64,000 nucleotides of DNA, from contig OZ253553.1 of NCBI GenBank assembly GCA_965262715.1, positions 1,952,001 to 2,016,000 of the forward strand. The letters run 5' to 3'. The position numbers were made by a program. Origin of the DNA: Bdellovibrionales bacterium. GTDB lineage: Bacteria; Bdellovibrionota; Bdellovibrionia; Bdellovibrionales; JAUICD01. Positions 24,001 through 27,000 of the stretch are shown one piece after another (within the stretch, counting starts at the first letter, position 1; each line of letters starts with the position of its first letter).

Positions 24001-27000
24001 GAAGGCGTGAGCCTTCAGACTGATTAGATACATTTAAAGAGTCTATCATCTATAAATTAAACACTGTAATCTTTAAAAATCTCAGTGAGACAAGCCTTAA
24101 CGCTTGTCTATTCCAAAAACTGCCAGAGGCAGGTTTATTTTTAGTGAAAATAAGTTTTGCGGAAGATCTCGTTTTTGGCTTAAAACATCAACTCTTAGAC
24201 TGCTATGAAAAGATTTGGTGTGATTTGAAGGGAGGAGGTAGTGAATGGAAATTTTCCTTAACATATTGTTAAGCAACGAAGGGAGTCTCCCCTCCTAAAA
24301 GTAAACGGATTTTCTAGGCGATGACCATTTTACCGACGATGAGAACCGTCGGGGTCATCGCCAGAAAACAGCCAGAGACTCGCCTCGAGAGGCCAGTTCA
24401 TTTTGAGTGAAACAGCAAAACAAGGAAAAGATCTTTGCAGTAATGATTTGAAGGGGAGGTAGTAAACGATTTCCTTAACATGATGTTAAAAAACGAGGGG
24501 AGTCTTCTTACTAAAAATGTCCCAAGCTTTCTGGCAGTCAGCTTTTTACGACGACGAGAGTCGTCGAGCTTACTGCCAGAAAGTTGCTAGGAGCAAGGGG
24601 CATTTTTAGTGATACAGAGCATTTTTAGGGAGACAGTTCTAAACCTCTTCTTTCAAATTCTTGTTTGATGATGTCAGAGTATTTAGAACTTTTTTCTGAA
24701 GAAAACATTTGTTGGTTAAGATGATTTATTTTTACTCCAAGAGTTTCAAAGTTGTCACTGTAGGTGATTAACGGAAGATGCTCGGTAAAGAGCTTTACAA
24801 TATCCTCTTTTAAAACATCAGTATGGTTATATATCTCCCACCAAATACTACTATAGAGGACTCCCATTAAATGAATCTCACCACTGCCATCATCTTGGCA
24901 ATTATCATAAACTGCATCAGCAGTCAGCGTTTTATTTTTTGTAGGGTTTCTAGAGAATTCCTCACCAGAACCGCAGGCTGTAATACCCTTTAGATTATTA
25001 GTAATAAGCTCTCCTATTTGAGGATTATCTGGAAATAAAATAGCTACATGAAAGTCAGCCTGTCCTTCATTAATAGCAAAGAGACAACCTTTTTTATCAA
25101 TACAACAACGACTTGAATCATTTTGTTCTTCCCCAGAGAGTTCACAGAGAGATTTTCTATCAGAACATCTCACATTTTTCTCACAAACACCATTACTAGA
25201 CCTTTCAACAGCAGAATAAGAAAAGTTAGCATGACCTGCTTCATGCACAAGAACGTCAGCACTTAATCCCATTCGCCCTCCACAAAGCTGTATTTTATTT
25301 TCAGAGGCACTCCAGTAAGCGCAAGCTTTAGAGTCACTAAGTCTCTCGTTGAGAATAGTAATATTCTTATTTGTGGCATACCATTTACCTGTATTGAGCT
25401 GCATCCAATCCTTTTGGTACATAATCCAGTGATATATCATGGCTTGATCTACTGAAAGATCAAAATCAGTGTAGGGTGTCGTCCACTTCCCTTTAGGGTC
25501 AGAAACATGAACTCTTTTTTTATCTTCATCAGATTCTATAAGCACATCAAAATGTTCATTTTTCAAAGAACCCTCAGTCGTATCACTGATATAAACAGCA
25601 TAATTTTGGAGTGAATAAAGCTCTTCTAATATAACATTAATATCTGTGCTTAAATTTAGAGGCGCGCCTTTTTGAGCAACAGGGTTCTTCTCATAAATAC
25701 AGGCATTGATATTGGGGTTCATCGGTAATTCTTCTTGGCAATTAGGCACTATACTCCCTACTCTGCCGGGTATTTGTAGTCTATCTGCTAAAGTAGTTGT
25801 AGTTGTACTTGTAGTACTTATCGAGCTTGTTGTTGTGCTTTGAATTGGTGAAGAAGATTCTTCCTGTTTACTTGAAGGTGTCAGCTCACCTCCAAGTTCT
25901 TCTGTTTTACAATTTTGAAAGAAAAGACTAATAAAAACCAATGTTATCAAAAAAAACAACCATGGAATGTATCTTCTTTTAAATAACTTCATTTAAATAA
26001 TGATTCCTGACGCTAAATAAAATTTTAAAAGTCCATATTTAGTCTTGACATATATACTTCTCTTCGGTAGAATCTTGAGAATAATAAATGACTAAAAAAT
26101 AAAGCTTGAATAAAATTTTGAATTAAATTAGGGATAATAAAGGTTTAACTTGAAGACTTTAAATAGCCAGGAAACTAAGCTTTTCAACTGAGGTTTATTT
26201 GTTCAGTCATATCTTATTGACTACGTTGTACCAAGTGTGCGATTTTAGAGTTTTAATAATAGGAGTGGGAAATTTTATGAGATTTGACCTGAGGAGAAGA
26301 ACATGGTTGTGATCCGTTTATCTCGATATGGAGCTAAAAAAGCACCAAAGTACCGCATCACTGTTTCTGACCAGAGGAAATGGCGAAATAGCCGTGCTAT
26401 TGAGGTCTTGGGGCATTATACCCCATCTCATCAAGGAATGGCAAAAAAGGTTGTTATTGATTTGGAAAACATCAAAAAGTGGGTCCATCAAGGGGCAAAG
26501 CCTTCTTTACGTGTACAAAAACTCATTTCTGAAGCACAAACATCATTGCCTGTGGAAAAAAATGCTTAAAAGTGAAGGTGTGTTCACGAATTGAAGACGA
26601 TTACGATGGATTTATTTAAAGATTTGAGTTAATATAGGATGAAAAAGACATAAGGTTTAAGTAAATAACCAAAATAAAGAATTTAAATATATATGTAGGG
26701 TGGTATTAATCATGAGTAATGAGACAAGCTTAAAAGAACTTGTAGAATTTATGGCAAAATCTTTAGTAGACAAACCTGAAGAGGTGGTTGTCAATGAAAT
26801 GATAGGGGAGCACACGACGGTGATTGAACTTAGAGTTGCTAAAGATGATTTAGGTAAAGTTATAGGAAAACAAGGTCGCACTGCCAAGTCGATGAGATCA
26901 ATATTGAATGCAGCTAGCATTAAAATTAATAAACGTAGTGTTTTAGAGATTCTAGAATGAGCTTTAATGAAAGTTAACTTGTTAGTCGATACCACTTTAT

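Follow-up and report, generated by a model that had tools for sequence, protein, structure and literature searches.

Apparent absence of Ffh, FtsY and SRP RNA from a 2.94-Mb Bdellovibrionales genome and from two clades of its order

The DNA upstream of rpsP in the Bdellovibrionales genome examined here (G000; one contig of 2,939,090 bp, with no N) raises the question of where its ffh gene has gone, and whether the SRP protein-targeting pathway has gone with it. The window, i.e. the whole stretch of 64,000 nucleotides that was analysed, contains rpsP and khpA. In its SRP-bearing sister, genome G002, this pair comes directly after ffh, as an earlier note on this DNA had stated. The genome called G002 here is the 'G004' of that note, and the SRP-null relatives in the same family (f1) are G001, G003 and G004 here. 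All of the data are genome sequences of uncultured organisms, with one assembly per species.

Nothing ffh-like was found at this locus in the window (Table 1). The position occupied by ffh in G002 is taken in G000 by a divergent ORF on the strand opposite to rpsP, beyond which there is a repeat-filled stretch. The description given previously, an unknown gene and a repeat-filled gap with no similarity to Ffh, therefore holds. No ffh remnant was detected among the repeats, and the small ORFs within them match no Pfam family. The 455-aa ORF was considered as an SRP replacement or component, and was ruled out by its lipoprotein signal, its HEAGH motif and its orientation. The conserved block ends at purA, because rimM, trmD and rplS, which follow khpA in G002, are placed elsewhere in G000 (rimM and trmD at about 862 kb of the contig, rplS at about 2178 kb). 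The ABC permease gene beside ffh in G002 likewise has its match elsewhere in G000, and the identity reported for it was recovered (62.4 %). The SRP RNA gene of G002 (ffs; 73.7 bits with RF00169) is directly upstream of dnaX. The 234-bp spacer upstream of dnaX in G000 contained no SRP RNA when searched with all Rfam families at E<=10.

Table 1. Features at the rpsP locus of G000 (positions in the window)
Feature	Position	Strand	Details
Repeat-filled non-coding stretch	23041..24612	none	six direct-repeat families, 22-300 nt, dispersed
Predicted lipoprotein, 455 aa	24625..25992	-	lipobox FFQNC and signal peptide; HEAGH zinc-metalloprotease motif; no Pfam family above cut-off
rpsP (bS16)	26303..26569	+	PF00886, 72.5 bits; 58 % identity to the G002 gene directly after ffh
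khpA (KH-domain RNA-binding protein), downstream partner of rpsP	26700..26960	+	PF13083, 84.5 bits; 77.5 % identity to the G002 gene
purA (adenylosuccinate synthetase)	27052..28344	-	PF00709, 568.8 bits

The G000 chromosome looks whole. Its cumulative GC skew is that of a complete circular replicon, with extremes 1.59 and 1.35 Mb apart, and tRNAs for 20/20 amino acids and a tmRNA are present. In this genome, the best match to PF00448, the NG-domain GTPases of Ffh and FtsY, scored 17.3 bits (cut-off 22.7), with 13 weak matches at E<=10. The methionine-rich M domain of Ffh (PF02978) had no match. Both models were positive in all 14 named control genomes. For the N-terminal helical bundle (PF02881) only sub-threshold stretches were seen, in a YhgA-like transposase and in a 118-aa ORF. 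A phmmer search with relaxed filters, using Ffh, FtsY and FlhF of G002 against the six-frame translation of G000, gave a best E value of 0.07. RF00169, the small bacterial SRP RNA, had no match at E<=10 across the whole genome. Of the SRP RNA models, it alone was applied to the complete genome; the rest, RF01854 among them, were applied to the window and three loci. All Rfam families run against the window at gathering score likewise returned no SRP RNA.

The weak matches were examined as possible diverged SRP proteins and rejected. Among the eight top-scoring PF00448 matches, seven lie in ORFs of other P-loop families (ComM/Mg-chelatase, Mrp/NUBPL, two T2SSE ATPases, ParA, AAA_14 and a resolvase); the Pfam scan left aside the remaining one of the eight, in a 1064-aa ORF, and five weaker ones. 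The ORFs scanned for PF02881 were also assigned to other families. These searches confirm the earlier claim that G000 has no recognisable gene for Ffh, FtsY, FlhF or the small SRP RNA.

The same absence was found in relatives. Among the four f1 relatives, PF00448 is confined to G002 (three matches, 90-248 bits); G001, G003 and G004 have no PF00448 match and no RF00169 match, so that the reported contrast between three relatives without SRP and a fourth with all of it was reproduced. Across the order, PF00448 was found in 349 of 384 genomes, again as noted before, and the loss proved to be broader than had been stated. Of the 35 genomes lacking PF00448, 33, belonging to five genera and including 15 single-contig assemblies, lack Ffh, FtsY and SRP RNA together. 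In the three genera of family f6 without PF00448, RF00169 was found in 0/10 (g102), 0/15 (g114) and 0/4 (g115) genomes, while it was found in 7/8 SRP-bearing controls. The SRP-bearing genome G282, with the weakest PF00448 E-value, has an SRP RNA score of 39.6 bits, which is below the cut-off. The other two PF00448-negative genomes are only 64 and 74 % complete, and still have an SRP RNA (69.7 and 64 bits). They form an internal control that separates true loss from incompleteness.

Mapped on a tree of YidC from 28 genomes, absence of SRP requires exactly two changes. Clade A (support 100/99) is sister to the SRP-bearing G002, and clade B has support of 98/95. We consider it likely, on these sequence data, that genera g1 and g3 of f1 lost Ffh, FtsY, the 4.5S-type SRP RNA and the flagellar paralogue FlhF after their split from the SRP-bearing g2, that a three-genus clade in f6 underwent a second, independent loss, and that both lineages kept the insertion machinery and use SRP-independent routes for membrane proteins. 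The central reading of the earlier note, a natural SRP-free bacterium that keeps Sec and YidC, is thus supported by the joint absence of all three SRP components, over a wider range than was claimed.

SecYEG, SecA, SecDF, YidC, Tat and trigger factor (TF), which had been listed as kept, were searched for again in G000 and all were detected. SecY scored 383 bits, SecE 51, SecG 66, the SecA DEAD domain 446, SecD and SecF 220 and 70, YidC 190 and TatC 236. Across the genomes searched, YidC was present in 28/28 with one copy in each, SecY in 5/5 and 23/23, SecA, SecD/F and TatC in 5/5, SecE in 8/8 and SecG in 7/8. The membrane-protein load is ordinary. By one crude hydropathy method, the same for all genomes, ORFs 100 aa or longer that have at least four hydrophobic segments made up 6.2 % (133/2160), 7.5 % (25/332) and 5.6 % (8/142) in SRP-less genomes, compared to 7.8 % (31/397) and 5.9 % (11/185) in SRP-bearing ones. 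A shrunken polytopic proteome was rejected because SRP-bearing relatives have the same share. If the polytopic load is ordinary and the SRP system has been lost, membrane proteins must reach the membrane by SRP-independent routes.

Several possible compensations were sought. The YidC sequence after the Pfam domain, where a ribosome-binding tail would lie, is 4-28 aa long in 14 SRP-less genomes and 4-26 aa in 14 SRP-bearing ones (11 aa with a net charge of +1 in G000). None of the 28 genomes has a second YidC paralogue, and no convergent substitutions were found in YidC of the SRP-less clades. In SecY, a single column of the first periplasmic loop differs (Gly to Asn/Arg), and it was dismissed as the SRP-bearing G002 already has Asn. 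The lengths of uL23 and neighbouring proteins are normal, leaving no extension that could serve as a membrane tether. SecB is found in 0/28 genomes, SRP-less and SRP-bearing alike. The anti-Shine-Dalgarno sequence is intact, and the enrichment of Shine-Dalgarno 5-mers before starts (a crude measure using longest-ORF starts) was 4.7x, 3.4x and 10.5x in SRP-less compared to 5.4x and 5.2x in SRP-bearing genomes. By this measure Shine-Dalgarno use does not appear reduced, so slow initiation of the kind seen in Escherichia coli suppressors gains no support from it. No candidate for a replacement targeting factor was identified by these searches, which did not look systematically for non-homologous ones.

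A change was seen in TF, whose apparent decay or loss is the first correlate of SRP absence. The TF of G000, a diverged member of its family, has an uninterrupted ORF (498 aa), with Trigger_N at 73.8 bits, Trigger_C at 30.8 and no FKBP_C, where G002 has 144.2, 94.1 and 39.8 bits, respectively. FKBP_C was undetectable in all four clade A TFs and their Trigger_N scores are 66-74 bits, compared to 144 in G002. Their identity to the TF of G002 is 21.7-27.5 %, though SecY is 75-81 % and YidC 45-48 % identical, and TFs of twelve more distant SRP-bearing genomes share 33-48.5 % with it. The ratio of TF identity to YidC identity has a median of 1.10 (range 0.86-1.48) in 78 SRP-bearing pairs, compared to 0.33-0.77 for clade A and 0.56-1.02 for clade B. 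Relative to Adk, the ratios were 0.41, 0.61 and 0.86. Peptide deformylase, an exit-site factor used as a control, is not accelerated. By these comparisons TF appears to evolve far faster in both SRP-less clades, 2-3x relative to SRP-bearing relatives.

The divergence touches all three TF domains, and TF of G355 and G356 has an in-frame PPIase deletion. No TF match was found in 5/29 SRP-less genomes of f6, of which three are closed (G302, G357 and G360, which have neither SRP nor TF), compared to 2/80 others. GFRxGxxP, which we take to be the TF signature motif, is intact in G000 and G001, so in these ribosome binding may persist; it is altered in G003 and G004. However, TF and SRP are linked only by a correlation, drawn from just two independent losses, and the link is not exclusive. 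Trigger_N scores are also lowered in reduced SRP-bearing genera of f6 (122 bits in G285, 120 in G286, 110 in G274 and 101.5 in G021), the most diverged TF of all is in the SRP-bearing G282 (64 bits, 15 % identity), and two SRP-bearing draft genomes have no Trigger_N match. The decay of TF may thus be a general consequence of genome reduction.

It is highly improbable that the missing genes are an artefact of assembly, binning or incompleteness, or that they were left unassembled or reside on a second replicon. Three unlinked genes are jointly missing from all 33 genomes across five genera (15 of these genomes are single contigs), their absence follows the phylogeny exactly in two clades, and the expected loci are intact and merely lack the genes. 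Skew of the kind expected of a whole circular replicon also argues against this. Incompleteness does remove PF00448 from the two genomes that are 64 and 74 % complete, but these retain the SRP RNA, so random loss looks different. There is only one assembly for each species, and the completeness estimates (G000, 92.7 %; other closed SRP-less genomes, 88-95 %) could be read as a sign of missing DNA. However, completeness and phylogeny of genomes are assessed with universal markers that include ffh and ftsY, and uniformly lower values in closed genomes fit true loss of marker genes. In four public runs from one sample, which is probably the source of the assembly and so not independent, both flanks of the repeat stretch were matched exactly and no short-read contig bridged the repeats. 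These contigs derive from the one sample in which the window was found; their breaks fall at 23483 to 24588, which is what dispersed repeats would produce. An SRP function that persists unrecognised, either through extremely diverged Ffh, FtsY and RNA or through a non-homologous factor acquired before the loss, is unlikely, although less so. It would account for a polytopic proteome of ordinary size, a factor not yet seen would fit the lack of adaptation in YidC, SecY and uL23, roughly half of the scanned ORFs match no Pfam family, and SRP components can drift, as the sub-threshold RNA of G282 shows. Against it, the SRP GTPases are among the best-conserved proteins (234-248 bits in G002, with every control genome positive), seven of the eight top weak matches belong to other families, the relaxed phmmer search gave no E value under 0.07, the ORF at the old ffh site is a predicted lipoprotein protease on the other strand, and no candidate factor has emerged.

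Ordinary reductive evolution of prey- or host-dependent bacteria is a real possibility, somewhat short of probable. SRP would then have been lost as in insect symbionts, with no special compensation, and TF decay would belong to the same general relaxation. The lineage looks reductively evolved because of its low coding density, selfish repeats and lost genes. Coding density is about 0.81 in G000 and 0.81-0.88 in the sampled SRP-less genomes, compared to 0.90 in SRP-bearing relatives; the G+C content of SRP-less genomes is 0.34-0.35 in f1 (0.40 in G002) and 0.42 in f6 (0.46 in SRP-bearing genomes). G000 is full of selfish repeats, its S10/spc operon is split, ybaB is missing between dnaX and recR, and 224/397 sampled G002 ORFs have no homologue in it, including the flagellar cluster, pyruvate kinase, FtsX and MTHFR. 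The diverged TFs of reduced SRP-bearing genera point the same way. The 'normal-sized genome' of the earlier note is generous given this coding density, the repeats, the lost genes and the 1.2-2.6 Mb of the other SRP-less genomes. However, the genomes are 5-20x larger than those of known SRP-less symbionts, and G000 keeps its full insertion machinery and the 133 polytopic ORFs counted above. Size alone is not predictive, as SRP-bearing relatives are equal or smaller (G285 1.2 Mb, G282 1.6 Mb, G011 1.8 Mb), and neither SecY, YidC, Adk nor deformylase is accelerated. An ATP/ADP translocase, a sign of intracellular energy parasitism, was found in 0/5 genomes, in a search without a positive control, the control genomes being equally silent.

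Returning to SRP-independent targeting in lineages that have lost SRP, we tentatively propose a composite mechanism, which seems plausible though not yet probable. Translating ribosomes would dock directly onto SecYEG/YidC, and/or SecA would assume co-translational recognition at the uL23 exit site. Slow growth and translation, suggested by the single 16S gene of G000 and hence one rRNA operon, would make this tolerable. TF, a rival for the exit site and for hydrophobic nascent chains, would be freed from constraint, and so could evolve faster, lose a recognisable PPIase domain in clade A, and be missing altogether from some SRP-less genomes. The wider proposition, that SRP is dispensable in nature for a full-sized membrane proteome and that its loss makes TF dispensable too, is rather doubtful on present sequences. 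If true, these lineages would make membrane proteins without any known exit-site targeting factor. Either SecA, SecYEG and YidC would suffice co-translationally, or there would be an undescribed factor that could be found by comparing the two SRP-less clades.

Life without SRP has precedents, none of which is quite the same. Mitochondria have no SRP, and the C-terminal tail of Oxa1, together with Mba1/mL45, tethers their ribosomes to the inner membrane. They are a bacterium-derived SRP-free system in which polytopic proteins are inserted co-translationally via a YidC homologue; here, YidC has no Oxa1-like tail and uL23 no extension, and a search that was not exhaustive revealed no other tether of ribosomes to the membrane. 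Streptococcus mutans ffh mutants (with YidC2) and SRP-deletion suppressors of E. coli survive without SRP, according to PMC7844537 and PMC8299109. The likeness is that, by these sources, life without SRP is possible if SecYEG and YidC stay, and that slower translation widens the targeting window. However, those strains are engineered and sick, whereas here the loss has become fixed across entire genera. S. mutans has YidC2, in contrast to the single YidC here, whose 4-28-residue tail is as in relatives and which has no paralogue or ribosome-binding tail, and, as regards the E. coli suppressors, the anti-Shine-Dalgarno sequence is intact here and Shine-Dalgarno enrichment appears similar to that in relatives.

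Among natural cases, PMC4779614 lists the insect endosymbionts Carsonella, Hodgkinia, Tremblaya, Zinderia, Sulcia DMIN and Blochmannia vafer as SRP-less. In these, as here, RNA and protein components are both gone and there are signs of genome reduction. However, they are tiny, intracellular and host-supported, and have lost much of the envelope and secretion machinery, while the genomes described here are 1.2-2.9 Mb and have SecYEG, SecA, SecDF, YidC and Tat. G000, at 2.94 Mb and with complete Sec, YidC and Tat, is not of this type.

No report of SRP loss in Bdellovibrionota was found in our literature search, and the abstract of PMC7844537 describes SRP as conserved in all living organisms. 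Natural exceptions have hitherto been accepted only for tiny insect symbionts, and the present lineages would add two independent ones with genomes of 1.2-2.9 Mb and more than 100 polytopic membrane proteins. SRP-free membrane targeting thereby becomes a comparative question, with 33 natural genomes and close SRP-bearing sisters in place of sick laboratory mutants. In addition, SRP-less lineages will be systematically scored as incomplete if ffh and ftsY are used as markers.

As to the claim that the loss overturns the universality of SRP outside insect symbionts, that universality was already qualified in PMC4779614 (2016), which lists Elusimicrobium minutum and Dehalococcoides spp. as having neither SRP RNA nor protein, and does not take the point further. 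If this listing is true, these cultured non-symbionts with genomes of 1.4-1.6 Mb are the same kind of case. A partial check did not support SRP absence in relatives of Dehalococcoides. All five Dehalococcoidales genomes found with a 16S probe fragment, among which D. mccartyi is not certainly included, encode Ffh and FtsY (245-258 bits), and PF00448 was found in 60 of 61 sampled genomes from the GTDB family of one of them.

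The studied genome (G000, a Bdellovibrionales bacterium) is a single contig of 2,939,090 bp (33.6 % G+C, no N); its tRNAs cover all 20 amino acids, and a tmRNA is present. The extremes of its cumulative GC skew lie 1.59 and 1.35 Mb apart, the pattern of a whole circular chromosome, and the contig ends do not overlap. The SRP GTPase domain found in Ffh, FtsY and FlhF (PF00448) scored at most 17.3 bits, below the cut-off of 22.7, in a search for which the control was positive in 14/14 genomes. Of the 13 weak matches, a family scan covered seven of the best-scoring eight (all but a 1064-aa ORF) and rejected these as SRP GTPases, the ORFs being ComM, Mrp/NUBPL, two T2SSE ATPases, ParA, AAA_14 and a resolvase. 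The Ffh M domain (PF02978) had no match in G000, the N-terminal helical bundle (PF02881) gave only sub-threshold stretches, one part of a YhgA-like transposase and the other of a short ORF, and the small bacterial SRP RNA (RF00169) had no match at E<=10. As an independent check, a six-frame translation of G000 (20,087 segments, each 40 aa or longer) was searched using phmmer with relaxed filters; with the three proteins Ffh, FtsY and FlhF from G002, a sister genome that has SRP, as queries, the lowest E value was 0.07. These searches bear out the earlier note, which reported all three proteins and the SRP RNA as missing.

In G002 (G004 in the earlier note), ffh has an ABC permease gene on one side and rpsP-khpA-rimM-trmD on the other, as the earlier note had placed it, the SRP RNA is directly upstream of dnaX-ybaB-recR, and the FlhF gene is inside a flagellar cluster. 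The corresponding permease (62.4 % identical to that of G002, 62 % in the note), rpsP-khpA, rimM-trmD and rplS are dispersed to separate places in G000. The dnaX-recR region is intact, and comparison of the 234-bp spacer upstream of dnaX with all of Rfam (E<=10) revealed no SRP RNA. Nothing in G000 corresponds to the flagellar cluster. In the window, the flagged stretch marks the expected location of ffh and does not by itself form a feature. As described previously, rpsP is preceded by an unknown gene, here a 455-aa ORF, and a gap filled with repeats. The only match in an Rfam search of the window at the gathering score was a tRNA, with no SRP RNA.

Features of the rpsP neighbourhood (window positions)
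Feature	Position	Strand	Remarks
505-aa ORF	21482-22999	+	flanks the neighbourhood; no Pfam family
Dispersed repeats, 22-300 nt	23041-24612		fill the whole stretch beyond the 455-aa ORF
455-aa ORF upstream of rpsP	24625-25992	-	no Pfam family above cut-off; lipoprotein signal FFQNC; HEAGH zinc-protease motif
rpsP	26303-26569	+	PF00886, 72.5 bits
khpA	26700-26960	+	PF13083, 84.5 bits
purA	27052-28344	-	follows khpA
441-aa ORF	28516-29841	+	flanks the neighbourhood; no Pfam family

Other differences in gene order were seen. In G000, recR directly follows dnaX (contig 1473585-1475987, L029), and ybaB, which separates them in the sister, has no match anywhere in the genome. G002 and two SRP-less relatives (G003 and G004) have an unbroken S10/spc ribosomal-protein operon, and in G000 and its congener G001 it is split; in G000, secY and the nearest upstream ribosomal-protein genes are 0.7 Mb from rpsJ-rplW-rplB and the following genes (contig ~2130-2133 kb and ~2836.8-2842.7 kb).

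Across the GTDB order, PF00448 was present in 349/384 genomes, the same count as obtained earlier, in 248 of the 274 that are at least 90 % complete, and in every genome of 11 of the 13 families. The 35 negative genomes are G000, G001, G003 and G004 in family f1 (clade A) and 31 in family f6. The SRP RNA was sought in 39 f6 genomes and was absent from all of those in genera g102 (0/10), g114 (0/15) and g115 (0/4), which form clade B. It was present in the other two PF00448-negative f6 genomes (69.7 and 64 bits), whose completeness is just 64 % and 74 %, and in seven of eight SRP-bearing controls, the exception being 85 % complete. As those two incomplete genomes keep the SRP RNA, incompleteness looks unlike the joint absence of protein and RNA seen in 33 genomes, 15 of them single contigs. 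In a maximum-likelihood YidC tree of 14 SRP-less and 14 SRP-bearing genomes, the SRP-less state requires exactly two changes. Clade A, (G000,G001)+(G003,G004), has support 100/99 and is sister to SRP-bearing G002, and the three clade B genera group together (98/95). Judged from this tree, SRP has been lost twice independently. Smaller or equal-sized SRP-bearing relatives (1.2-1.8 Mb) exist, and size alone is therefore no predictor of the loss.

Signs of genome reduction were found. Coding density is 0.81 in G000, 0.85 in clade B genome G355 and 0.88 in G003, compared with 0.90 in two SRP-bearing samples. Among 397 sampled G002 ORFs, 224 had no tblastn match in G000, and the median identity of the proteins in common was 53 %. 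The first 150 absent ORFs include many accessory genes, and also pyruvate kinase, FtsX and MTHFR. The G002 genes for pyruvate kinase (L099:15325-16788) and FtsX (L102:13666-14607), and the whole flagellar export cluster (L028; flhA, flhF and neighbours), lack a G000 homologue. G000 has one 16S gene.

The insertion machinery is retained, as the earlier note had stated for SecYEG, SecA, SecDF, YidC and Tat. YidC is single copy in 28/28 genomes, SecY was found in 5/5 and 23/23, SecA, TatC and SecD plus SecF each in 5/5, SecE in 8/8, and SecG in 7/8 (the exception is an SRP-bearing draft). SecB was found in none of 28 genomes, SRP-less or SRP-bearing. Polytopic load was estimated using the same crude gene call and hydropathy count for each genome, as the proportion of ORFs 100 aa or longer that contain at least four hydrophobic segments. 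This share was 6.2 % in G000 (133/2160), 7.5 % in G003 (400-kb sample) and 5.6 % in G355 (200-kb sample); the two SRP-bearing samples gave 7.8 % (G002) and 5.9 % (G281). The shares are similar, and the membrane proteome normally served by SRP is therefore still present.

Trigger factor (TF) docks on uL23 beside SRP and rivals it for nascent chains. It was the one tested factor that differed between the SRP-less and SRP-bearing groups. For its N-domain, 12 SRP-bearing genomes gave 131-154 bits, nine clade B genomes 108-125 and clade A 70-78. Over the full length, TF in clade A shares 21.7-27.5 % identity with that of G002 (SecY, 75-81 %; YidC, 45-48 %), and that of twelve more distant SRP-bearing genomes is 33-48.5 % identical to it. 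The TF/YidC identity ratio had a median of 1.10 (0.86-1.48) in 78 SRP-bearing pairs (G282 left out); pairs of clade A genomes gave 0.33-0.77 and pairs of clade B genomes 0.56-1.02. The ratios relative to adenylate kinase were 0.41, 0.61 and 0.86. Even G000 and G001, of one genus, share only 27 % TF identity. All three domains are affected; clade A proteins have no recognisable PPIase domain, and their Trigger_C scores are 0-56 bits (94 in G002). TF of G355 (L308, 326 aa) and G356 (L307, 340 aa) has lost the entire PPIase domain in frame; what is left aligns with positions 1-122/155 and 255-418 in TF of G358. In closed genome G302, there was no N-domain match, and no TF was found by Pfam or with a congeneric query that scores 454-505 bits in relatives. 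Within f6, the N-domain is missing from 5/29 SRP-less genomes (G302, G357 and G360, all closed, G349 and G354) compared with 2/80 others, both drafts; these five would be without both known uL23 nascent-chain factors. Peptide deformylase, another exit-site factor, was present in 28/28 genomes and is not accelerated (152-172 bits in clade A, 163 in G002).

This correlate rests on only two independent losses, and TF scores are also lowered (101-133 bits) in reduced SRP-bearing genera. G282 (closed, 1.6 Mb) has kept SRP, yet its TF is the most diverged (64 bits; 15 % identity to relatives) and its SRP scores are the weakest of all (PF00448 E-value 2.5e-63, the weakest in the order; SRP RNA 39.6 bits, narrowly below the Rfam cut-off). 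This lineage may have gone some way along the same path. G000 and G001 retain GFRxGxxP, the ribosome-binding signature of TF, which is changed in G003 and G004. The sequences fit relaxed selection on TF, after or together with SRP loss, as a correlation in which TF possibly still binds the ribosome.

SRP has disappeared, SecA persists together with the channels, the load of membrane-protein substrates is ordinary, and TF is in decay. The SRP-free reading put forward earlier is supported, in 33 genomes, with the replacement mechanism a proposal. SecA can act co-translationally at uL23. Ribosome-nascent-chain complexes might reach SecYEG/YidC through intrinsic affinity, via SecA acting co-translationally at uL23, or both, and slow growth and a weakened or lost TF competitor would help. 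We hold this combination tentatively, at somewhat short of an even chance. A dedicated but unrecognised targeting factor appears unlikely, and the remaining probability goes to SRP loss without any specific compensation. A YidC2/Oxa1 route was rejected, with no second YidC and YidC tails of 4-28 residues (4-26 in SRP-bearing relatives), and no YidC alignment column showed conservation in the SRP-bearing genomes together with a change in clade A and clade B. The one convergent SecY column was discarded, its derived state occurring also in G002, and uL23 and its neighbours are of normal length with no extension. The E. coli SRP suppressors described in PMC7844537 and PMC8299109 act via slower initiation. 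Here, a crude probe found the anti-Shine-Dalgarno intact and Shine-Dalgarno enrichment similar in SRP-less and SRP-bearing genomes.

Natural SRP loss is documented in PMC4779614 for insect symbionts with extremely reduced genomes, whereas here it occurs in mid-sized genomes with intact insertion machinery, twice independently and accompanied by a TF correlate that had gone unnoticed. Full-text searching of open-access papers and bioRxiv turned up no description of SRP loss in Bdellovibrionota. PMC4779614 also names Elusimicrobium minutum and Dehalococcoides spp. as taxa without SRP RNA and protein. In Dehalococcoidales reached by a 16S probe fragment, Ffh and FtsY were present in 5/5 genomes, D. 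mccartyi not being certainly among them, and PF00448 was found in 60 of the 61 genomes sampled from the GTDB family to which one of these belongs. The sole genome without a match is G447 (1.6 Mb), which shares its GTDB family with a Dehalococcoidaceae MAG.

Between tuf and tRNA-Trp, G000 carries a tandem array of four identical copies of a tRNA-like gene (contig 2198524-2198863; L317:2025-2364). ARAGORN assigns them no amino acid because the eight-base anticodon loop holds a four-base anticodon, 'uaca'; the Rfam tRNA model gives every copy 54.7 bits.
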